Of a DNA stretch of 64,000 nt, positions 23,629 to 61,927 are shown piece after piece. Position 1 is the first letter of the stretch. Each line of letters opens with the position of its first letter. Source of the stretch: a bacterium (GTDB taxonomy: Bacteria > Patescibacteriota > Patescibacteriia > Patescibacteriales > Patescibacteriaceae). Where the stretch lies: the NCBI GenBank assembly GCA_035438725.1, contig DAORIW010000002.1:2882-66881 (forward strand). The letters run 5' to 3'. Under the pieces are notes generated by a model. That model was not told the DNA's origin. It saw only the letters and a list, made by a program, of their open reading frames with translations, and did no database searches. The position numbers and the translations under genes were made by a program.

Positions 23629-23702
23629 TGGACCTGAAGGGATTCGAACCCTTGACCTCCTGCTTGCAAAGCAGGCATTCTAACCAGCTGAACTACAGGC
23701 CC
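23629..23702 (-). tRNA. tRNA-Ala (UGC)
   Basis: Cloverleaf GGGCCTG...CAGGTCC with G3:U70, anticodon loop TTTGCAA, GG in the D-loop, TTCGAAT T-loop; CCA not encoded. Confidence 0.95.
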
Positions 23703-30428: not shown

Positions 30429-32657
30429 ATGGCGGATCAAAATTTGATTAATTATATTAAAGAAGCTCAAGGTCAGGGGATAACTCAAGAGCAGATTAAA
30501 GATGATTTATTGAAGGCAGGTTGGCAAGCCGCAATGGTTGAAGATGGCTTTAGAGCTTTGGGATCTCCATTAATCACTCCTTTAGAAACCACAGCGGTCT
30601 TAGAAAAGAAAAAGTTTTCTCCTAAACTTATTCGAGGTTTAATAATTTTCGGTAGCACAATAGCGGTTTTGATAATCGCTTTTTTTGTTTTTAAAAATAA
30701 GATATTTTCATTAGCTAACCCTGAGTCTTCGGAAGAAGTTAGTAAAGTTGATCAGAAAAAGGTTGTTTCATCGCCTTTCTTACAATTTGATACTGAATTA
30801 AAGTTGGCTGATTATAAGAAAGATTTTGCCTATTATGAAGTTATTTGGAATAAAGAGAAAACTTGTTTTGGAATAGTTATAGAAGAAAATTTTAACCTAA
30901 AAGAAGAAACTCAATATCAATATATATCTTTTAAAGATAGTGTAGTTGGTCCTGTAAAAATAATGAATTCTGCTTGGCAAGAATTTAAATTTAGTGACGA
31001 CTGCAGTACCTTGGTATTTAAAGCTCAAGATAAGGAAGATGGTTTATATCATATATATAAGAATGGAGTAGCGATTTATACACAAGATCAGTTTGGTATT
31101 GGAGAATATATATTTGATTCAAAATCAAAAAAAATATTTTATATGGAGGAGAACAGTCTTTTTATCGATGGCGTTAACGTAGGCACGTACAACAATGCTC
31201 TACCGTTAAGTTCCTTAGTTAAAAATTTAAAATTTGATAATTTTGGAAATTATGTTTTTAAAGTAGTAGAAAAAAATCCAGAATATGAAATTTTTATTCA
31301 AAAAAATAAAAAACCACCATCTTCAGAATTCGGGTCTCTTTTACATGGAATTGAGGTAGACCCAAACTTAACTCTTGAAGAAAAAAATAAAAAAATGAAA
31401 GAAGTAATGGATACAATGACACCAGAGGAAATTGAAAAATTTACCGACGAAATGCTTTCTGAAGAATCTCTTATTCAAGAAATCCAACTAGGAGAGGATT
31501 TTAAAAAATTCAACTGGCTAACCAGGGAGATTTTAGTAGTTAACGGTAAACAAACAGAGCCTTTTAAAATTATTCATAGTTTCCACTTTACGGAAAACGG
31601 TGATTTACGATATTTAGCTAGTAAAAATGATGGAGATTATTTCTTTCATGATGGAAAATTAGAGCAACTAGAAAAATATGACCCGACGGATTCTTTTCGA
31701 AGATCATACAATAATTTTAAATCAAGTCCTGATGGTAAAAAATATTCATACACCGTCTCAATGTATAAAACTCCCTCTGATAATTTTACAAAGAATCTAG
31801 GAAATGAAGCAATAGTGAATCAAGAAATCGAGGAAAGTGAGAAGTTAAAAAAATATAAGCTTGTTCTTAATGGTATGGTTACAGAAGAATATGTAGGTTA
31901 TCCAACGGAAAATTTAATATTTAGTGCTGATAGTAAACATGTAGCTTATCATGTTTCTGATAGTGCAAATAATAACTTAGTTTTTTTGGATGGAAAAAAA
32001 ATAGGTTCCTTTCCTAATATTTCCAGTGGTTATTATAATTCTCTTTTTGCTTTTAGCGCAGACAATAAATTATATTTCAATACTTCTGACACCAAAGAAT
32101 CATGTTTGTATATTAATGGAGAAAAAAGTAATTGCCAACAAGGTACTTTTGATAACTTTACCTTTCGAGGAAATTCATTTGCCTATGTTCATAAATATGG
32201 TGACCATGAGAATGCGGCACGTTATAATGTAATTTTTAATGGCGTGGTTCATGGGCCGTACGACTCAATAGATGAATTAGAAATTAGTCCCGATGGTACA
32301 AAGTTTTTTCATATAACTATTGACAGGAAAGGTCTTTTCCTAAATGGGGAAATATTGGAAGCTGAATCAGCTTTTGCGGGAGATCTAGAACAACTGGCTT
32401 TCTTCACTCCTGATAGTCAGCATATTGTTTACTCGGCTCGTCCTACTGATACTAAAATAGAAATAAAAATGGATAAAAAAGTAATTGAGGAAATAGCTAC
32501 TCCACGATCCTATAACCAAGGATATAATCAAGACATTGATTATCTTAATCATCCCGGTTATCTTTTTGCGGCGCCGGATAAAAAAAGTGTTTGGTATTTC
32601 TTTAATCAAAGAGAAACCAAGCAGTTAATCGTAAAAAATATTAAATTAGGTCTTTAG
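30429..32657 (+). CDS. Membrane-anchored protein with PD40/TolB-like beta-propeller repeats
   Basis: Small N-terminal cytoplasmic helical domain, one TM, then repeated S(P/A)D(G/S)K..(Y/F) blades (SSPDGKKYSY, SADSKHVAYH, ISPDGTKFFH, FTPDSQHIVY). Confidence 0.6.
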   Translation: MADQNLINYIKEAQGQGITQEQIKDDLLKAGWQAAMVEDGFRALGSPLITPLETTAVLEKKKFSPKLIRGLIIFGSTIAVLIIAFFVFKNKIFSLANPESSEEVSKVDQKKVVSSPFLQFDTELKLADYKKDFAYYEVIWNKEKTCFGIVIEENFNLKEETQYQYISFKDSVVGPVKIMNSAWQEFKFSDDCSTLVFKAQDKEDGLYHIYKNGVAIYTQDQFGIGEYIFDSKSKKIFYMEENSLFIDGVNVGTYNNALPLSSLVKNLKFDNFGNYVFKVVEKNPEYEIFIQKNKKPPSSEFGSLLHGIEVDPNLTLEEKNKKMKEVMDTMTPEEIEKFTDEMLSEESLIQEIQLGEDFKKFNWLTREILVVNGKQTEPFKIIHSFHFTENGDLRYLASKNDGDYFFHDGKLEQLEKYDPTDSFRRSYNNFKSSPDGKKYSYTVSMYKTPSDNFTKNLGNEAIVNQEIEESEKLKKYKLVLNGMVTEEYVGYPTENLIFSADSKHVAYHVSDSANNNLVFLDGKKIGSFPNISSGYYNSLFAFSADNKLYFNTSDTKESCLYINGEKSNCQQGTFDNFTFRGNSFAYVHKYGDHENAARYNVIFNGVVHGPYDSIDELEISPDGTKFFHITIDRKGLFLNGEILEAESAFAGDLEQLAFFTPDSQHIVYSARPTDTKIEIKMDKKVIEEIATPRSYNQGYNQDIDYLNHPGYLFAAPDKKSVWYFFNQRETKQLIVKNIKLGL

Positions 32658-34057: not shown

Positions 34058-35422
34058 TTACAACCTTTCTTTTAAATAATTTTCCAACTCATCAATCTTA
34101 ATTCTTTTTTGTTCCATAGAATCTCGTTCTCGTACCGTTACGTCGTTGTGCTCTAAGCTATCAAAATCAACAGTGATACAAAACGGTGTTCCAATTTCAT
34201 CCTGGCGACGGTAGCGTTTCCCAACATTACCATTGTCATCAAATTCGCTTGGGTAAGCTTTCTTTAACATTGCGTACACTTCACGAGCCTTACTTACTAA
34301 CTCTGGCTTATTTTTCATCAAAGGAAAAACGGCGACTTTAACTGGGGCGAGTTTGGTTGGCAATCGTAAAACGATACGAGTATCTTCACCTGTTATTTCT
34401 TCGTGATAAGCCGAGAGTAATACTGCTAACATGGTTCGCTCTACGCCCATTGAAGGCTCAATGACATGCGGGATAGATTTAATATTATTTTCATCACTGT
34501 ATTCAAGGCCATGACTCTTCAAATCAAAATCATAACGATAGGCTAAACCGTAGAGTTCTTTCGTGCCAAATGGATACTTATATTCAAAATCAATAGTTTT
34601 CTTTGAATAATGGGCCCGCTCTCCATCTGGTATTTCAACTTCATTAATTGAAGCATCATAATCAATTCCGAGATCCTTAATCCAATTCACAACTTGCATT
34701 TTCCAGGCTTCGAAATAACCAAGCCATTCACTCTCAGTTTTTGGAGCGGGAATAAAATATTCGATTTCCATTTGTTCGAATTCACGAGTCCGGAATATAA
34801 AGTTGCCGGGGGTAATTTCATTTCGAAAAGCTTTACCGATTTGGCCGACACCAAAAGGTAATTTCTTACGAGAAGTATCAAGAATATTTTTAAAGTTGAT
34901 AAAAATACCCTGGGCGGTTTCCGGTCGGAAATAAGTAGCGTTACTTTCGTCTTCGACTGGTCCGAGATGAGTTTTCATCATCATGTTAAATTGTTTCGGT
35001 TCGGTTAGTTCGTTTCCGGCCGGACTTTTCAACTTAAGTTCAGTCATTTTTTCGGTCATGCTTTTAAAATCTAGACCACTCGTCTTAACCCCTTGTTCTT
35101 CCAGTAAATGATCTAAACGAAAACGTTCATGAGTTTTTTTATCTTCAACTAACGGGTCAGTGAAATGCCCGAGGTGACCACTTTTTTCCCAAACTGTTGT
35201 GTTTAAGAGAAGGGAACTATCAAGACCAACCATATCGTCGCGATTTTCAACAAAACATTTCCACCACAACTGTTTAATATTGTTTTTCAGCGTAACGCCT
35301 AAAGGACCGTAATCCCAACTGTTGGCTAGTCCACCGTAGATTTCTGAACCGGGAAAAACAAAGCCACGTCGTTTACATAACGAAATAATTTTCTCCATTA
35401 AATCTGATTTTTGCTCTTTCAT
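34058..35422 (-). CDS. glyQS: Glycine--tRNA ligase (homodimeric class II type)
   Basis: RRGFVFPGSEIYGGLANSWDYGPLG, FRNEITPGNFIFRTREFEQMEIEYF, GVERTMLAVL. Confidence 0.95.
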   Translation of the reverse strand: MKEQKSDLMEKIISLCKRRGFVFPGSEIYGGLANSWDYGPLGVTLKNNIKQLWWKCFVENRDDMVGLDSSLLLNTTVWEKSGHLGHFTDPLVEDKKTHERFRLDHLLEEQGVKTSGLDFKSMTEKMTELKLKSPAGNELTEPKQFNMMMKTHLGPVEDESNATYFRPETAQGIFINFKNILDTSRKKLPFGVGQIGKAFRNEITPGNFIFRTREFEQMEIEYFIPAPKTESEWLGYFEAWKMQVVNWIKDLGIDYDASINEVEIPDGERAHYSKKTIDFEYKYPFGTKELYGLAYRYDFDLKSHGLEYSDENNIKSIPHVIEPSMGVERTMLAVLLSAYHEEITGEDTRIVLRLPTKLAPVKVAVFPLMKNKPELVSKAREVYAMLKKAYPSEFDDNGNVGKRYRRQDEIGTPFCITVDFDSLEHNDVTVRERDSMEQKRIKIDELENYLKERL

Positions 35423-36816: not shown

Positions 36817-37716
36817 TTATATATTGATACCAATTTTTTGAAGTCGGAGTTGATATTCATGTTTAAAATATTCTCGTCGGTCAACGGTGTGTAATTTTAG
36901 GATATGATCAGAGATGATTACTTGTTGATTTTTATTGGCTAGGTTTCTAATAAGTGGAGACATAACTCGCCAATGTAATTTTTGAGAAATTTTTTCTAAA
37001 CTTCTAAGAAAGGAGAGTGACCAGAATGCCTGAGATACTTTTGATTGAAAGCGCCGGATTGGTTCGGCCGCTGCTCTCCAATTTGGAAGTTCCTCTCTCA
37101 ACCATTGATTAGCTTTAATTAATTTTTGATAATACGATATATCACCATACAAGGGCAGAAGTCCGGCCAGCCAGTAGGTAAAATAATAATCTTCTTCAAA
37201 TCGACAGTTTGTTAAATTTAAATTACTCTCATCAACTAAGAAACTTAAACAGAGGCGGTCGGCGCTATGATTTTTAGTGGGCCGAATGCCTAGAATTTTT
37301 ATAATTAGGGTAGCCGTTAATTTTGTAAGCCAGAGACGCTCTTGTTTAGTAATAATAAAAAGGTCACTGTCACTACTGGCCCGAAGATTATGAGAGCCAA
37401 TACTATTGGCTAAACAGATAAGACGAATGCCTGGTAGCCATTGAATAAAAAGAAGGCGTCGGCGGGTTTTTTGTATTTTTCGATTAGTGATTAGATATCG
37501 TTCCCGGCGAATCTCGAAAATATGTTGACGACCGGGTAAAAAATAAAAACCAAATTTTTTTTCAAGCGGAAGATTATAATCTTCTAAAGCCTCAGTGACA
37601 GCTGATAAGGAAGATTTTTCGGGGAGATATTGCCAGATTTCAAAAGCAGTCAGGGGATAATCAAAAATATCGAAATAGGCAATTGTTTTTAGAATAGAGG
37701 TCGAGAGCGAGGACAT
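36817..37716 (-). CDS. Hypothetical protein, possible nucleotidyltransferase fold
   Basis: GS-x8-SDSDLFII resembles the hG[GS]x9-13Dh[DE]h NTase motif. Confidence 0.45.
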   Translation of the reverse strand: MSSLSTSILKTIAYFDIFDYPLTAFEIWQYLPEKSSLSAVTEALEDYNLPLEKKFGFYFLPGRQHIFEIRRERYLITNRKIQKTRRRLLFIQWLPGIRLICLANSIGSHNLRASSDSDLFIITKQERLWLTKLTATLIIKILGIRPTKNHSADRLCLSFLVDESNLNLTNCRFEEDYYFTYWLAGLLPLYGDISYYQKLIKANQWLREELPNWRAAAEPIRRFQSKVSQAFWSLSFLRSLEKISQKLHWRVMSPLIRNLANKNQQVIISDHILKLHTVDRREYFKHEYQLRLQKIGINI

Positions 37717-39166: not shown

Positions 39167-39919
39167 TTAGATCAACTCCCAAAACTTGTCATACCATGAA
39201 CGGTGCATAGCGCTAATTTCCTTACTCTCAATAATAACGCCCATAAAATTTTCTTTATAAGAGAGAAAAGCAACTTTATTTGCAAATATTTTCATATCAC
39301 CGCTAAAGGCATGAGCTGAATCTTTTATTATTTTAACCTCTCGTAGTTCTTCCTTTGCTCGTGCCTTCCATTTTTTTGCTTCAATAGAATCAGTCGTAAT
39401 AGTACGATTGATTATTTTTTTCTTTACACGTTCCTTAACATAGTAATCCCCAATTTCTTCGGGAAAAACTCTTTGGAAGTCAGTCATCCCTGTATAACTT
39501 AAAATAGTATCACCCGGAGCTACACTGTTTACTACTTCGCGATAAATATCCTTTATTCCACCCACTCCCTCGTAGAGAGTTATTTTTGGTTTATAAGGAA
39601 AGACATTGTGAAGTGATTGAAGGTGGGGGATAACGCTATCAATCATTTTGGCCCTCTCTTCTAAAGAGACTTTTAAGTTACGTGGATCTTCAATAAAGTA
39701 AGTTTTTTTACCCGATCTTTTGACTAAGCTTACATGGCCTTCGGACTGGAGTTCAGGAAGAATACTATAAACAGTAGTTCGTTTTAATTGGGCCATAGCG
39801 GCAATCGAAGCCACGGATGCTTCACCAAGTTCTAACAAGGTTAAATAGACCTTGGTTTTTTTATCAGAAAAACCGGTTAGTGATTGAATACTCTTTTCAA
39901 GATTGTTTAATTTTTTCAT
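39167..39919 (-). CDS. TrmB-family transcriptional regulator
   Basis: N-terminal wHTH KVYLTLLELGEASVASIAAMAQLKRTTVYSILPELQSEGHV; start moved to MKKLNNL, downstream of the promoter. Confidence 0.8.
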   Translation of the reverse strand: MKKLNNLEKSIQSLTGFSDKKTKVYLTLLELGEASVASIAAMAQLKRTTVYSILPELQSEGHVSLVKRSGKKTYFIEDPRNLKVSLEERAKMIDSVIPHLQSLHNVFPYKPKITLYEGVGGIKDIYREVVNSVAPGDTILSYTGMTDFQRVFPEEIGDYYVKERVKKKIINRTITTDSIEAKKWKARAKEELREVKIIKDSAHAFSGDMKIFANKVAFLSYKENFMGVIIESKEISAMHRSWYDKFWELI

Positions 39920-39944
39920 ATTGTCGAATTTTTTAGACACATTA

Positions 39945-39973
39945 AATATAGCAAAAAAATTGAAAATTGTCAA
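39945..39973 (-). promoter_or_regulatory. Promoter TTGACA-17-TATATT for the TrmB-family gene
   Basis: Plus-strand TGTCAA 39968-39973 and AATATA 39945-39950. Confidence 0.55.
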
Positions 39974-40058: not shown

Positions 40059-41186
40059 ATGAAAACAACTGAAATACGACAAATTATAAAAAATTTACCA
40101 AGAATACCCAATATCGCTTATTTGCATGAAGCGCCGGTTATTCATTCAGGTTTTCCATCATGCTTTAACCTTTCTTTTGGTGAGTATGAGTTATTGAGAG
40201 AATTTAATGGCCAATACTTAGTGTATGACCATGATTGTATCTATTCAAAGATACAGCCTTGCATTAGACACCAAGACTGGGAAACAATTGTTAAAGATGA
40301 AAAGAATCGCTGGCGTTATCTTTCTTTATTTAATATGGCTGATGTTTCAGGATTGATTATAAAACAAAATAATAAAGAACAGGAGGAATTGGGCAAGCAC
40401 GCTATTTTCTCGTTTGTACATTTTATTGTTTCACTTGGTCTAAAAAAAGAAAATTTACGAATCTCTTACTTTGCTGGTGGAAAGGTAAGGGATGTTACTA
40501 AAGGAAAGTATGAGTTAGAAACATACATTCCATCAGATCCCTTAAAAGATTATTGGAAGTCTTTAGGTATTAGTGAAAATCAGTTTATTTCAGATGCAAC
40601 TCGCGATACCTTTTTAGCTTTACAAGTATTTGGTTTACCTACTCCTTGGGGGTACCGCAATGAGATAAATTATTTGCATGACGGAAAATTACTTGATATT
40701 GGAACGGTTGAGTATATGAAATTTGAACCTGTGTTTGTAGATAAAAAGATTATAGCGCTTAAACCTTTTCGTCATTCTTTAGGAATTTCCGCAGTCGGTG
40801 TCGAGCGATTATTAATGATAATTAATAACCATGCAAACGTGTATGATATTGATATTATTGAACCGCTCATTCATGAAGTATTAGAAAGGTGTGAAAAAAA
40901 AGATAAGATTCAAGCAATGATTATAGTTCAGGCTATTCGAGCTCTGCACCAAATTATTTCTGACGGGGGAATATACTCTCGTTTAAACACTCGACGTAAA
41001 GAGTATGTACGTATGTTTTGTAGGGGTATGGTAGCAGCGGCCAAAAAAATAAACTATAATCTTTCCTCAATAAATATAAAAAAAATCTTGCAATTGAATG
41101 CAAAATTGCAATCATTCTATCCTCAGTTATTAAATAATATTGAAATAACGGGGCAAGAGATTCAAGCAAGAGTTAATCAATTATAA
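40059..41186 (+). CDS. Stand-alone, diverged alanyl-tRNA synthetase catalytic-domain (class IIc) paralog, 375 aa
   Basis: Collinear with the AlaRS N-terminus: TEIRQ; [11 protein letters not shown] vs [24 protein letters not shown] vs [24 protein letters not shown] vs CGPCTEIFYDHG; VEYMKF vs [28 protein letters not shown] vs [33 protein letters not shown] vs IRSCAFLIADG. No editing or C-Ala domains. Confidence 0.75.
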   Translation: [375 protein letters not shown]

Positions 41187-41207
41187 AAAAAATATGTAAA
41201 AAAATAA

Positions 41208-41279
41208 AGGGACGTAGCTCAATAGTAGAGCGTCTGCCGTATATGCAGATAGTTGAAGGTGCAAATCCTTCCGTCCCGA
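41208..41279 (+). tRNA. Atypical tRNA-like gene 1 (UAU at the anticodon position)
   Basis: Cloverleaf (A)GGGACG-TA-GCTC-AATAGTA-GAGC-G-TCTGC-CGTATAT-GCAGA-TAGTT-GAAGG-TGCAAAT-CCTTC-CGTCCC(G)-A. G at position 33, no G18G19, G at position 55, A1 opposite G72. Confidence 0.6.
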
Positions 41280-41290
41280 CACATAAATAA

Positions 41291-41375
41291 AGGGAGGTGG
41301 CGAAATTGGTAAACGCACTTACGTAAAAGTAAGCGACTGAAATGTCTTGGGGGTTCAAGCCCCCCCCCCTCCCGA
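41291..41375 (+). tRNA. Atypical type-II tRNA-like gene 2 (Leu-like, UAA/AAA region)
   Basis: (A)GGGAGG-TG-GCGAAATTGGTAAACGC-A-CTTAC-GTAAAA-GTAAG, long variable arm, GGGGG-TTCAAGC-CCCCC, two extra C, CCTCCC(G)-A. 6-nt anticodon loop and a C9 run. Confidence 0.5.
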
Positions 41376-41398
41376 CTAGCTTATGTAAAAATTTTAAT

Positions 41399-41470
41399 AG
41401 GGGCGTAGCTCAATAGTAGAGCGTCTGTTTTACCTACAGAAGACTGGAAGTGCAATTCTTCCCGTCCCGA
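41399..41470 (+). tRNA. Atypical tRNA-like gene 3 (UAC at the anticodon position)
   Basis: (A)GGGGCG-TA-GCTC-AATAGTA-GAGC-G-TCTGT-TTTACCT-ACAGA-AGACT-GGAAG-TGCAATT-CTTCC-CGTCCC(G)-A. C at position 37, no G18G19, G at position 55. Confidence 0.6.
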
Positions 41471-45670: not shown

Positions 45671-45744
45671 TACGCCTGCTTGGACTCGAACCAAGGACCC
45701 TCGAGGTATAAGCTCGATGCTCTAACCAACTGAGCTACAGGCGC
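45671..45744 (-). tRNA. tRNA-Ile (UAU)
   Basis: GCGCCTG-TA-GCTC-AGTTGGTTA-GAGC-A-TCGAG-CTTATAC-CTCGA-GGGTC-CTTGG-TTCGAGT-CCAAG-CAGGCGT-A; canonical elbow; G1.U72. Confidence 0.85.
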
Positions 45745-45764: not shown

Positions 45765-45838
45765 TGATCACTAGTGGACTCGAACCACCGACCTCCACGA
45801 TGTCAACGTGGCGCTCTAACCAACTGAGCTAAGCGATC
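45765..45838 (-). tRNA. tRNA-Val (GAC)
   Basis: GATCGCT-TA-GCTC-AGTTGGTTA-GAGC-G-CCACG-TTGACAT-CGTGG-AGGTC-GGTGG-TTCGAGT-CCACT-AGTGATC-A. Confidence 0.9.
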
Positions 45839-60076: not shown

Positions 60077-60506
60077 CCTTGTCTTGAGATAATCGCTCGG
60101 TACACAGATGATTGCTTTATTCAAAATGGATAGAGAGGAAAGTCCGGACTCCAGAAAAAGGGCAGTGGGTAACGCCCACCAGAAGTAATTCTAGGGAAAG
60201 TGCCACAGAGACAATACTAGCTGACTCATAGAGTCAGTGAAAGGTGAAAAGTGAGTTTAGGTTGCTAAAGTCAGCCAGAACTCTCGTCGCTTGGTGACAG
60301 GCTGACGCGGTAAACCCTGCCTGGAGCAAGAGCAAACCTTTTTTCGTCAATGATGAAAAAAGATGAAAAGTAGCTCGCTTGAATTCTTAAGCAATTAAGG
60401 ATCTAGATAGATAATCATCGTTCGGTTCTCAGCGTGTTATATAACATTCTGAGGTCGGATACAGAATCCGGCTTATCGTGTGCCGGGTGTTTATTTCATG
60501 ATAAGG
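60077..60506 (+). ncRNA. rnpB: RNase P RNA (bacterial type A)
   Basis: Universal P4 strands GAGGAAAGTCCGG (about 60134) and ACAGAATCCGGCTTA (about 60461), GGGTAACGCCCA, AGTGCCACAGAGA, GGTAAACCC; long P1 pairing 60077-60105 with 60478-60506. Confidence 0.9.
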
Positions 60507-60511
60507 CATGT

Positions 60512-61927
60512 ATGAAAAAATCAGATTTATTTTTTTCCGTTATCTTGGTTCCGCTTGATTTTTTAATGATTGTCGCGGCTGGGTTATCGGCTTATTATCT
60601 TCGTTTTTCAGAGCTGTCCACTGATATTCGACCAGTGATTTTTAGTTTACCGGTCGGAGAATATATTTCTATTGTTTTAATACTTGCTACCGTTTGGCTT
60701 ATTATTTTTAGTTTTTCCGGGTTATATAATATTCGGGAATTAGGTAGCCTTAAAGTTGAATTAAAAAAAGTAATCATGGGCTGCTCACTTGGATTAGTGG
60801 CCGTTGTAATTTTTATTTTCTTTTACCGTGAACTTTTTTCTTCACGTTTTATTGTTTTAGTTGGTTGGGCTTTTGCAATTCTCTATGTTGGTGTGGGAAG
60901 AATCTTAGTAACATTAATTCGTCGTTTATTATTTCGTAATGGTCAAGGAATTCATTCAGTTGTTGTGGTGGGCGAAAGCCAAACCGCCGACCATTTGGTA
61001 CGAGAATTTGCCCGTCGGCCAGGACTTGGTTTTGTAATTGTAAAGCGTTTATCCGATTTTAGTTTAGAATCAGCTAAAGAACTAGAAGCACTATTAGCCG
61101 TTAGAGAAGTAGATGAAATTTTACAAGCTGATCCCACTCTTTCTAAAAGTGATCGTTTACGATTATATGACTTTGCTGATGAACATCATTTGGTGTATAA
61201 GTATGCAGCTGATCTTTTGGAAACAAAAGTTTTGCGAGTTGAGGTTGATGAACTAGCCGGTATTCCGATTGTTGAAGTTAAAAAAACTCCTCTCGATGGT
61301 TGGGGGAGAGTTGCTAAACGAATTGGGGATATTATTGGTTCCATTTTTCTAATAGTAGTAACCAGTCCCATTATGCTTTTGGTTATTATCGCCATTAAAC
61401 TCGATTCTCGGGGGCCTATTTTCTTTTCTCGACTTGATGATGATTCACCTTTGTATCGAATTGGTCAGGGAGGTAAAAAGTTTCGTTATTTAAAATTTCG
61501 TTCGATGGTTCCGCGAATGAATAGTTTGCGCTACAGTGAGTTAGCTGATCGTAATGTACGTTCCGACGGACCGATGGTAAAGATAAAAGATGATCCTCGA
61601 GTAACTCGAGTTGGAAAATTTATCCGTCGATTTAGTTTTGATGAATTACCGGAATTATTTTTAGTCCTCGTTGGTACAATGAGCTTAGTTGGTCCTCGTC
61701 CACATTTACCTGAGGAAGTAGCTAAATATGAAGGTCGTCATAAAAAAGTTTTAACAATTAAGCCGGGTATTACCGGATACGCTCAGGTTTCTGGGCGAAG
61801 TGATTTAACTTTTGAAGAAGAAGTGAGACTGGATATTTATTATATTGAAAACTGGGCAATTGTTTCTGATATTATTATTCTTCTAAAAACACCATTAGCG
61901 GTTCTTCGTCCGCGCGTGGCTGAGTAA
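60512..61927 (+). CDS. Polyprenyl-phosphate sugar phosphotransferase (WbaP/EPS initiating transferase family)
   Basis: N-terminal TMs plus Bac_transf core KRIGDIIGS..., KFRSM, DELPELFLVLVGTMSLVGPRP; start moved to ATG 60512, outside rnpB. Confidence 0.88.
   Translation: MKKSDLFFSVILVPLDFLMIVAAGLSAYYLRFSELSTDIRPVIFSLPVGEYISIVLILATVWLIIFSFSGLYNIRELGSLKVELKKVIMGCSLGLVAVVIFIFFYRELFSSRFIVLVGWAFAILYVGVGRILVTLIRRLLFRNGQGIHSVVVVGESQTADHLVREFARRPGLGFVIVKRLSDFSLESAKELEALLAVREVDEILQADPTLSKSDRLRLYDFADEHHLVYKYAADLLETKVLRVEVDELAGIPIVEVKKTPLDGWGRVAKRIGDIIGSIFLIVVTSPIMLLVIIAIKLDSRGPIFFSRLDDDSPLYRIGQGGKKFRYLKFRSMVPRMNSLRYSELADRNVRSDGPMVKIKDDPRVTRVGKFIRRFSFDELPELFLVLVGTMSLVGPRPHLPEEVAKYEGRHKKVLTIKPGITGYAQVSGRSDLTFEEEVRLDIYYIENWAIVSDIIILLKTPLAVLRPRVAE

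Follow-up and report, generated by a model that had tools for sequence, protein, structure and literature searches.

In a 64,000-nucleotide (nt) stretch of a patescibacterial chromosome (contig DAORIW010000002.1; the window, that is, the whole stretch analyzed here), an open reading frame (ORF) encodes a stand-alone relative of alanyl-tRNA synthetase (AlaRS) that belongs to an unannotated protein family of candidate phyla radiation (CPR) bacteria and DPANN archaea, and three aberrant tRNA-like genes lie immediately downstream of it. Our best explanation, which we offer tentatively, is that the protein acts as an ATP-dependent ligase whose specificity has changed and which charges tRNA-like carrier RNAs dedicated to it. 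Positions of all features are collected in Table 1.

The ORF is real, and its product of 375 amino acids is a true but very remote relative of AlaRS, at the edge of sequence detection. The Pfam profile PF01411 (tRNA-synt_2c) matches it with 32.1 bits against a gathering score of 30.3 and covers residues 233-368 only, the TIGR00344 alaS equivalog model gives 35.7 bits, which is far under its cut-off of 457 bits, and the top sequence match in the PDB as detected with phmmer is A. aeolicus AlaRS with E=0.018. The relationship is settled by the predicted structure: an AlphaFold2 model built on 92 homologs (mean pLDDT 97.2, pTM 0.93) aligns in Foldseek with AlaRS catalytic fragments from human, E. 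coli and A. aeolicus at template modeling (TM) scores of 0.74-0.78 and E ~1e-20 at ~18% identity, and for the same model the structural scores of GlyRS-alpha and ThrRS are far below those of the AlaRS fragments. Thus, the AlaRS-like class II scaffold that the initial annotation had recognized by eye is borne out by the hidden Markov model (HMM) for tRNA-synt_2c, the match being significant though remote, as well as by the fold. Other identities were considered and rejected. A split AlaRS or a GlyRS-alpha is incompatible with a TM score of only ~0.35 to GlyQ and with the presence of an archaeal-type GlyRS and a normal tRNA-Ala in the window. A viral or mobile origin finds no relatives in IMG/VR and no notable PHROG match, the surrounding DNA is chromosomal housekeeping DNA, and the matches in BFVD are giant-virus mini-AlaRS only, which are structurally as distant as cellular AlaRS. 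Finally, PADLOC gave no match to a defence system.

To pair residues with those of E. coli AlaRS, we used phmmer, the addition of the E. coli sequence to the 92-sequence family alignment with MAFFT (MAFFT-add), and hhalign; the literature numbers used here for E. coli AlaRS (R69, W170, N212, D235, G237) equal the translation index minus 1. By phmmer and MAFFT-add, R70 is the equivalent of the motif-2 arginine R69. Similarly, D73 corresponds to D76, F91 to F90, L186 to W170, E202 to E183, D213 to E209, T216 to N212, E218 to V214, I243 to D235 and A245 to G237, and G247-V-E249-R250 corresponds to the GxER of motif 3. The hhalign alignment (probability 92%) agrees with the others at both anchors and only differs in the register of the strand comprising residues 210-226. 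For this strand the hhalign register was set aside and the phmmer/MAFFT-add register is preferred, because in the latter the invariant triad D213, T216 and E218 is spaced as E209, N212 and V214.

Among the 92 homologs, the equivalents of the ATP-, Mg- and adenylate-site residues, i.e. R70, D73, F91, E202, D213, G247 and R250, are invariant (92/92). The residues replacing W170, N212 and V214, which we take from the AlaRS-AlaSA structures to line the alanine pocket of E. coli AlaRS, are equally uniform, with L186, T216 and E218 in 92/92. The column of D235 contains Ile in 45 sequences, Val in 27, Leu in 11, Ala in five, Thr in three and Gly in one and is acidic in none, and position 245, the equivalent of G237, is occupied by A, G or V. 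In AlaRS the alpha-amino group of alanine, and also that of serine and glycine, is bound by the conserved acid Asp235 (PMC12143591). W197, G198 and R200 are new invariant residues. In total, the replacement pocket is more hydrophobic (Leu, Thr, Ile/Val/Leu, Ala) and includes a new glutamate, E218, and a new arginine, R200. Given that the ATP-site residues are invariant and that the pocket residues are replaced by other invariant residues, the active site appears to be re-specified rather than dead. Judged from the alignments, this pattern argues for a predicted working enzyme with a new substrate and not for a decayed paralog.

These data bear directly on the initial annotation, which had proposed that the motif-2 arginine and the motif-3 GxER are kept while W170, N212 and D235 are changed to Leu, Thr and Ile/Ser, and which had considered that its manual alignment might be shifted. 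The profile-level alignments reproduce the by-eye pairings, and both the kept and the changed positions are family-wide features. As for function, it had suggested either a changed substrate or a non-catalytic RNA-binding role. We favor a changed substrate with catalysis retained, and a purely non-catalytic role appears to be the weaker reading. A role involving RNA is nevertheless supported in a form that had not been foreseen, by a kept helical domain and by the adjoining non-canonical tRNA-like genes.

The class IIc catalytic core is followed by a helical tRNA-recognition domain of the ATL/Mid1 type. In the model, residues 248-375 form seven helices, and they align to AlaRS ~236-360, corresponding to positions 213-351 of the Pfam HMM. 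In this region a conserved D302-G...N310-x-x-R313 segment pairs with ADG...PSNENR in E. coli (D302 in 86/92 and R313 in 84/92 homologs, N or S at the position of N310). Contrary to the earlier view that the protein ends roughly at the onset of the helical tRNA-recognition subdomain, it keeps the first helical part of this domain (~125 amino acids) and lacks only the distal part, the editing domain and C-Ala. The absence of the last two had been noted correctly: the protein stops at residue 375, and neither this protein nor any of the 92 relatives has a Pfam match to the editing (tRNA_SAD) or C-Ala domain.

The family is large and has escaped annotation. A word-index search identified 204 relatives, nearly all of 350-410 amino acids and nearly all named 'hypothetical', and an exhaustive profile search of 1.84 billion representatives identified 443 clusters (50% identity) with E<=1e-3, 223 of them with E<=1e-10, without drawing in canonical AlaRS. 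Only 37/92 members reach E<=0.01 with PF01411. The members are stand-alone proteins and, among species-representative genomes, are found in CPR/Patescibacteria (Paceibacterota, Vogel-, Buchanan-, Berkel- and Peribacteria) and in DPANN archaea (Pace-, Woese- and Nanoarchaeota, Iainarchaeum). In full-text literature searches we found no description of the family or its tRNA coupling; what comes closest in the literature is AcmF, viral mini-AlaRS and the small-AlaRS of CPR, DPANN and Asgard organisms, each of which differs in defining features.

The three tRNA-like genes (t1, t2 and t3; 41208-41470), which the initial annotation had missed, are on the same strand as the ORF, and the first starts 22 nt past its stop codon. 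Both t1 and t3 score above the gathering threshold of the Rfam tRNA model (RF00005), and in their T-loops U54-G55-C56 replaces U54-U55-C56. In t1, an A1·G72 mismatch and A73 are combined with a D-loop AAUAGUA without GG, a T-loop UGCAAAU and G33; t3 has A1·G72, G5·U68, A73, the pyrimidine C37, a D-loop AAUAGUA without G18G19 and a T-loop UGCAAUU. In t2, a C10 run (41360-41369) introduces two extra C between the T-stem and the acceptor stem. The bodies of t1, t2 and t3 derive from Ile, Leu and Val tRNA types, respectively, and despite this the three RNAs have a common acceptor end with an A1·G72 mismatch, G2-C71, G3-C70, G4-C69 and A73. Because a canonical tRNA-Ile(UAU) is encoded 4.4 kb away, t1 is an extra copy, and AUA is decoded by a UAU anticodon and not by the lysidine route.

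A sister strain with 98% identity has all three RNA genes, conserved at 96-99%. In this strain t2 has the same 6-nt loop, a C8 run, a perfect cloverleaf and U at position 1, giving a U·G pair; t1 has U33; t3 is conserved; and the A1·G72 mismatch recurs in t1 and t3. An assembly artefact as the origin of the odd features was rejected on the basis that the 6-nt loop of t2 and the A1·G72 of t1 and t3 recur. Because the sister strain has U33 and C8, G33 in t1 and the C10 run in t2 are strain-specific and could be errors, and the difference in the C-run may reflect slippage or a sequencing error. Only C8, as in the L128 equivalent, gives a regular acceptor/T-arm junction in t2, and C-runs of variable length are also seen in the related Leu-like RNAs L007a and L047a. 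Neither a terminator nor a good promoter was found between the ORF and the RNAs, and searches around the gene for other RNA families or a T-box leader returned tRNA matches only, plus a sub-threshold YrlA match. Two short listed ORFs, 41173-41358 (-) and 40954-41169 (-), are antisense to the three tRNA-like genes and the 3'-terminal part of the AlaRS-like gene and are almost certainly spurious.

To place this arrangement in the family, 117 related loci were scanned with ARAGORN and with a covariance model of the G55-type RNA, R1, which was built from 10 sequences. In the R1 structure 98.6% of the cells are paired, G5·U68 occurs in 9/10 sequences, and compensatory changes in 11 pairs support the cloverleaf. 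In a neighbor-joining tree, the coupling between gene and RNA maps to a single CPR clade comprising 26 loci. Of these, 22 have a tRNA-like gene abutting the family gene on the same strand, compared to 1.1% per locus expected from the tRNA density in the flanks (nominal binomial P 2e-39, with loci that are not phylogenetically independent); in the other clades, which are mostly DPANN, the number is 8/83. In the subclade of the window, the stop codon is adjoined or overlapped by tRNA-like genes that are of the G55 type or aberrant in another way, and in the sister subclade Val-UAC and Ile-UAU/GAU genes lie directly upstream of the family gene. Several loci contain two or three tRNA-like genes or have tRNA-like genes upstream. 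In the ~880 kb sampled, R1 matches of at least 84 bits are all at the family gene, whereas canonical tRNAs in the flanks reach at most 72 bits. Moreover, the coupling persists down to ~40% protein identity, with the remaining neighborhood being wholly reshuffled.

In many relatives the gene and the RNA overlap. Among the 66 closest protein clusters, approximately 42 have a C-terminus that reads [RG][GD][VI]AQ (such as RGVAQ) or GV, and these tails are the in-frame translated 5' end of a tRNA (AGG GGU GUA GCU CAR..., or GGG GUG UAG). Therefore, the stop codon of these ORFs lies inside the RNA gene, and cleavage by RNase P would leave an mRNA without a stop, which suggests co-transcription and linked maturation. 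In an overlapping subclade (P0007-P0063), a conserved peptide, F-x-N-D-[KR]-S-[IL]-K, is found just before the RGVAQ/GV tail; this peptide, which is absent from the protein of the window, could stem from constraint on the protein or from a conserved RNA leader preceding the tRNA-like gene. Further tRNA genes are found next to the family gene: in five loci of different subclades, a canonical-looking tRNA-Ser (GGA or CGA) is immediately upstream on the same strand, ending 3 nt before the start codon of the family gene in L001, and in L084 an upstream tRNA(UAU) (1124-1195) has G3·U70 (acceptor GGGGGUG/CACCUCC), i.e. the AlaRS identity element on an Ile-type anticodon.

Across the loci, the abutting RNAs are conserved in the acceptor stem, A73 and the T-arm. 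The clade-wide common acceptor end consists of N1, G2-C71, G3-C70, G4-C69 and A73, of which A73 is invariant, and position 3:70 is G3-C70 and not G3:U70 in 10/10. Within a locus, the acceptor stems are unified over Ile-, Val- and Leu-like bodies. All 10 G55-type RNAs have a D-loop ARYAGYA with a single G and a T-loop with U54-G55-C56, in which C56 is kept. Nearly all partner RNAs contain U34-A35 or a UA-containing loop. In the class with a normal arm of 5 bp and 7 nt, the anticodon is UAU in seven, UAC in five and CAC in one, a pyrimidine is present at position 37 in four and a residue other than U33 in two, and many of these RNAs have a CUUAUAC loop identical to that of the canonical tRNA-Ile of the window. 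In the non-decoding variants the anticodon stems reach 8-11 bp: L001 has a 9-bp stem capped by GCAA, L003 and L004a have 9-bp stems capped by GUAUAU/GUAUAC, L005 has an 8-bp stem with a 5-nt loop, L045 combines a Leu-like body with a 6-bp stem and a GCAA tetraloop, and L007a and L047a have ~10-bp stems on Leu-like bodies. L064 and L043 contain insertions in the D- or T-loop. The ARAGORN calls 'tRNA-Leu(UAG)' in L001 and 'tRNA-Lys(UUU)' in L007 were rejected given that folding gives long stems with a GCAA tetraloop or a 3-nt loop. Together, these features suggest that several of the abutting RNAs have anticodon arms unable to decode, and the RNAs seem unfit for normal decoding. tRNA-like genes with G55, without G18G19 and with non-decoding arms are mis-called or missed by standard tRNA finders in CPR genomes.

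Comparison with known systems brings out what is particular to the family. Canonical AlaRS (PF01411; PDB 3HXU, 1RIQ, 4XEM) has the same class IIc fold followed by a helical recognition domain and the same motif-2 arginine, GxER and ATP/Mg-site residues. By contrast, identity is ~18%, Asp235, W170, N212, V214 and G237 are all replaced in the family, the alaS score is 35.7 versus 457 bits, the family lacks C-Ala as well as the editing domain and the distal recognition subdomain, and the associated RNAs have G3-C70 whereas the real tRNA-Ala of the window has G3:U70. The small-AlaRS of CPR, DPANN and Asgard organisms (bioRxiv 10.1101/2023.05.29.542759) is likewise a reduced AlaRS built around a catalytic and ATL core in the same kinds of organisms; however, it retains the editing domain and is treated as the AlaRS of the organism, whereas the family described here has neither the editing domain nor the alanine pocket. 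Viral mini-AlaRS, i.e. TuAlaRS of Tupanvirus (PMC10036535) and its Terrestrivirus and Yasminevirus homologs in BFVD, also consist of two modules without editing or C-Ala domains, and the catalytic and recognition core of TuAlaRS binds and charges an acceptor-stem microhelix without C-Ala (PMC10036535). Unlike the family, mini-AlaRS is a true, host-related AlaRS that charges G3:U70 tRNA-Ala with alanine and complements yeast ALA1; the family has neither the alanine pocket nor G3:U70 partners and is a separate, deeply diverged prokaryotic family.

AcmF of ascamycin biosynthesis is an AlaRS-like transferase that consists of the aminoacylation and tRNA-recognition domains only and uses Ala-tRNA as donor (PMC12945691). 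It resembles the family in its truncated two-domain AlaRS-like architecture and altered pocket residues, and it acts outside translation. Compared by description, AcmF is reported to have lost most of the ATP-binding residues and to have an acid, E232, at the D235 position and Gln at N212, whereas the family has an invariant ATP site, a hydrophobic D235 position and Thr at N212. Moreover, AcmF is encoded in a Streptomyces biosynthetic cluster and uses ordinary Ala-tRNA-Ala, whereas the family is encoded in housekeeping DNA with dedicated aberrant tRNA-like genes. On the RNA side, the closest parallel is the cell-wall tRNAGly of Staphylococcus, for which loss of G18, G19, U55 and C56 is the hallmark in S. 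aureus and which binds EF-Tu weakly (PMC4574755). The Staphylococcus tRNAGly are extra copies without these elbow nucleotides and are presumed to evade both EF-Tu and the ribosome; here, G18G19 are lost, U55 is replaced by G55, and t1 duplicates the canonical UAU isoacceptor of the same window. The Staphylococcus tRNAGly differs in being charged by the normal GlyRS and used by FemXAB for pentaglycine synthesis, in not being fused to a synthetase-like gene and in having normal anticodon arms, whereas here C56 is kept, several arms are non-decoding and no Fem-type gene is nearby.

Combining the data on the protein and the RNAs, we suggest that the ORF protein is a stand-alone descendant of the AlaRS aminoacylation core that comprises the catalytic domain and the first helical recognition part. 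In this model, the protein would still form an acyl-adenylate from ATP, with a substrate other than alanine; the composition of the predicted pocket may point to a larger and more hydrophobic amino acid. The substrate would then be passed to the 3' end of the dedicated tRNA-like RNAs, which would be recognized via the acceptor stem in the way that AlaRS and viral mini-AlaRS recognize microhelices. The charged RNAs would mainly function as non-ribosomal aminoacyl carriers; the analogy is with the cell-wall tRNAGly of Staphylococcus, in which the same elbow nucleotides are missing. The family gene and the RNAs are probably co-transcribed, and because RNase P cutting at the tRNA 5' end would remove the ORF stop codon in many relatives, expression of the enzyme could be coupled to processing of its RNA partner.

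Several observations weigh against this model. The active-site mapping is based on sequence alignments and a predicted model, and the adjacency statistics ignore phylogenetic non-independence. The coupling is not obligatory in cis, because nearly all DPANN archaeal loci and ~4/26 CPR-clade loci lack an abutting tRNA-like gene; loci L041, L038, L024, L102, L055 and L058 have no abutting RNA, and a search for hidden tRNA-like elements in the CPR-clade exceptions also found none. A conserved acceptor-side gene of the Fem, MprF or L/F-transferase type was not found in the window or the sampled neighborhoods. Finally, most class-I-type RNAs strictly keep the 7-nt CUUAUAC (Ile-UAU) and UAC loops; this retention is unexplained if only the acceptor stem is read and fits charging by IleRS and ValRS, or decoding, better. 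More generally, a conserved operon partner or acceptor pathway was considered and rejected, as six CPR and DPANN neighborhoods have only tRNAs in common.

Alternatively, IleRS, ValRS and LeuRS would charge the tRNA-like RNAs, which would be kept off the ribosome by the defective elbow or the 1:72 pair, and the family protein would pass the aminoacyl group to an acceptor, possibly one that is bound in the AMP site. AcmF provides a precedent as a truncated AlaRS-like protein that uses Ala-tRNA as donor (PMC12945691). Consistent with such a transferase, the invariant A73 is common to the Leu, Ile and Val identity sets, and a branched-chain aminoacyl group would fit the more hydrophobic pocket. 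The anticodon is read by IleRS and ValRS but not by bacterial LeuRS, which would explain why UAU and UAC are kept in the Ile- and Val-like RNAs and why the loops are degenerate in the Leu-like RNAs. We consider this scenario unlikely, although it is the main alternative: the ATP-site residues including the motif-3 arginine are invariant in 92/92 and the D235 position never carries an acid, opposite to the description of AcmF; there is neither a biosynthetic-cluster context nor a conserved acceptor-pathway neighbor; and the non-Leu-like RNAs with 9-bp stems and GNRA loops (L001, L003, L004a) would hardly be readable by IleRS or ValRS. The retained loops could also be explained if the enzyme is part of a second decoding system and charges NUA-reading tRNAs (UAU, UAC, UAA/UAG; N being any nucleotide) for ribosomal back-up, ambiguous or conditional reading of AUA, GUA and YUA, similar to the deliberate-mistranslation pair ProRSx/tRNAPro-A in Streptomyces. 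In favor of this possibility, the anticodon arms of most class-I-type RNAs are regular (5 bp, 7 nt) and contain U34-A35 (UAU in seven, UAC in five), many CUUAUAC loops match that of the canonical tRNA-Ile of the window, and unified acceptor stems within a locus are the expected outcome of selection by a single acceptor-reading synthetase. It is improbable, however, in view of the many partners that cannot decode (GNRA tetraloops, 8-11-bp stems, 6-nt loops), the pyrimidine-37 in four RNAs and non-U33 in two, the missing elbow residues G18 and U55 as in translation-avoiding tRNAs, and the canonical tRNA-Ile(UAU) in the same window.

If the tRNA-like element were instead a cis-acting 3' end of the enzyme's own mRNA, the protein could have a regulatory or processing role in which it binds RNA without catalysis or acts on a small molecule only. 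The stop codon inside the tRNA-like gene in ~2/3 of the close relatives, which mechanically links RNase P processing and translation, the annotation of E. coli AlaRS as a DNA-binding repressor of its own gene and the lack of a conserved protein partner would all fit. But the whole adenylate site is invariant over CPR and DPANN, which is hard to explain for a pure binder, DPANN members without the element keep the same invariant residues, and several loci have two or three tRNA-like genes or upstream ones, unlike a simple 3'-end element; we give this role a low probability. Coincidental synteny is slightly less probable still. According to this idea, the gene resides in a tRNA neighborhood, e.g. 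an ancestral Val/Ile cluster, and the odd tRNAs are unrelated or decaying duplicates. Ordinary-looking Val-UAC and Ile-UAU/GAU genes are indeed upstream in the sister subclade, Ser, Asp, Asn, Arg or Lys tRNAs adjoin the gene in some loci, and an adjacent tRNA is missing from 4/26 CPR-clade loci and from almost every archaeal locus. Coincidence is difficult to reconcile with a coupling that holds to ~40% protein identity amid reshuffled neighborhoods, with compensatory substitutions in the RNAs, unlike in pseudogenes, with the G55 type being found at the gene only within the ~880 kb sampled, and with Leu-, Ile- and Val-like bodies that have the same acceptor end in a locus. Finally, GluQRS/YadB is a GluRS core without the anticodon-binding domain that glutamylates queuosine-34 of tRNA-Asp, and with this precedent the family protein could place an amino acid on an anticodon-loop base of U34-A35 tRNAs rather than on the 3' end. 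The U34-A35 or UA-containing loop in nearly all partner RNAs agrees with such an activity, which we nevertheless regard as very unlikely: the helical domain that the family has kept serves AlaRS for binding the acceptor stem, genes for modification enzymes do not usually come with aberrant substrate genes of their own, and partners with GCAA tetraloops offer no such target.

Returning to the ligase model, the family could in a broader and more doubtful proposal represent a natural synthetase/RNA pair. Here, a class IIc AlaRS-core descendant with a new acyl specificity would charge orthogonal tRNA-likes encoded at its stop codon by means of an acceptor-stem code and feed either a hitherto undescribed route of non-ribosomal aminoacyl transfer common to CPR and DPANN or conditional re-reading of NUA (Ile, Val, Leu). 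The architecture of AlaRS is regarded as one of the most conserved among synthetases. For several synthetases, paralogs of the catalytic core that stand alone and have new functions are known, including GluQRS, EpmA/PoxA, HisZ, AsnA and the amino acid:carrier-protein ligases, and AcmF is the only AlaRS catalytic-core paralog with a new function that we found described in literature searches. If true, the proposal would add a new branch of synthetase evolution across two great radiations of ultra-small symbionts, and a natural orthogonal enzyme/RNA pair could be of interest for genetic-code engineering. The predictions are directly testable with one protein and three defined RNAs of 72-85 nt.

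Table 1. Positions of the AlaRS-like gene, its adjoining RNAs and other features in the window and in related loci
Feature	Positions	Strand	Basis or remark
AlaRS-like stand-alone protein, ORF of 375 aa	40059..41186	+	member of unannotated CPR/DPANN family
Class IIc catalytic core, aa 1-247	40059..40799	+	residue mapping, column counts, fold match
Helical tRNA-recognition (ATL/Mid1-like) domain, aa 248-375	40800..41183	+	model secondary structure, AlaRS alignments
t1, G55-type tRNA-like, anticodon UAU	41208..41279	+	87.8 bits to model R1
t2, tRNA-Leu-derived body, long variable arm, 6-nt 'anticodon' loop GUAAAA	41291..41375	+	29.5 bits to Rfam tRNA
t3, G55-type tRNA-like, anticodon UAC	41399..41470	+	87.5 bits to model R1
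Canonical tRNA-Ile(UAU), normal D- and T-loops	45671-45744	-	4.4 kb from trio
tRNA-Val(GAC)	45765-45838	-	paired with tRNA-Ile(UAU)
tRNA-Ala(UGC), normal	23629-23702		G3·U70
Archaeal/eukaryotic-type dimeric GlyRS	34058-35422	-	NF003211, 602 bits
TrmB-family helix-turn-helix regulator	39167-39973	-	divergent from AlaRS-like gene, 85-nt intergenic; kept in sister strain
Endonuclease/exonuclease/phosphatase family ORF, 283 aa	44878-45729	-	N-terminus MVRASSLYLEGPWFESKQ...; overlaps tRNA-Ile 45671-45744 (-)
Bacterial class A RNase P RNA	60096-60491	+	227.5 bits
Upstream tRNA-Ser, locus L001	5913-5998		
Upstream tRNA-Ser, locus L006	5760-5847		
Upstream tRNA-Ser, locus L011	5889-5976		
Upstream tRNA-Ser, locus L019	5796-5884		
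Upstream tRNA-Ser, locus L024	4845-4930		

The window is otherwise an ordinary CPR chromosome that encodes PolA, a UvrD-nuclease, the archaeal-type GlyRS, RmuC, the TrmB-like regulator, TopA, DprA, MurJ and RNase P RNA. Given the normal tRNA-Ala(UGC) with G3·U70, the real AlaRS is expected to be encoded elsewhere in the genome. CPR bacteria are reported to use an archaeal/eukaryotic-type GlyRS uniformly, and the GlyRS of the window fits this pattern. The TrmB-family regulator may or may not control the AlaRS-like gene; a TrmB gene is also found ~3 kb from the archaeal family member L124.

ORFs 30429-32657 (+) of 742 amino acids, which lies in the stretch of the window with the lowest GC content (GC 0.30), and 36817-37716 (-) of 299 amino acids have no Pfam or NCBIfam match. 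Two further ORFs overlap RNA genes. The TTG start of the endonuclease/exonuclease/phosphatase family ORF lies inside the tRNA-Ile gene, and the true start is therefore probably the internal Met of 'MKLITLNIWGG'. Similarly, ORF 60434-61927, which has a GTG start, overlaps the 3' end of the RNase P RNA, and its real start is therefore probably further downstream.

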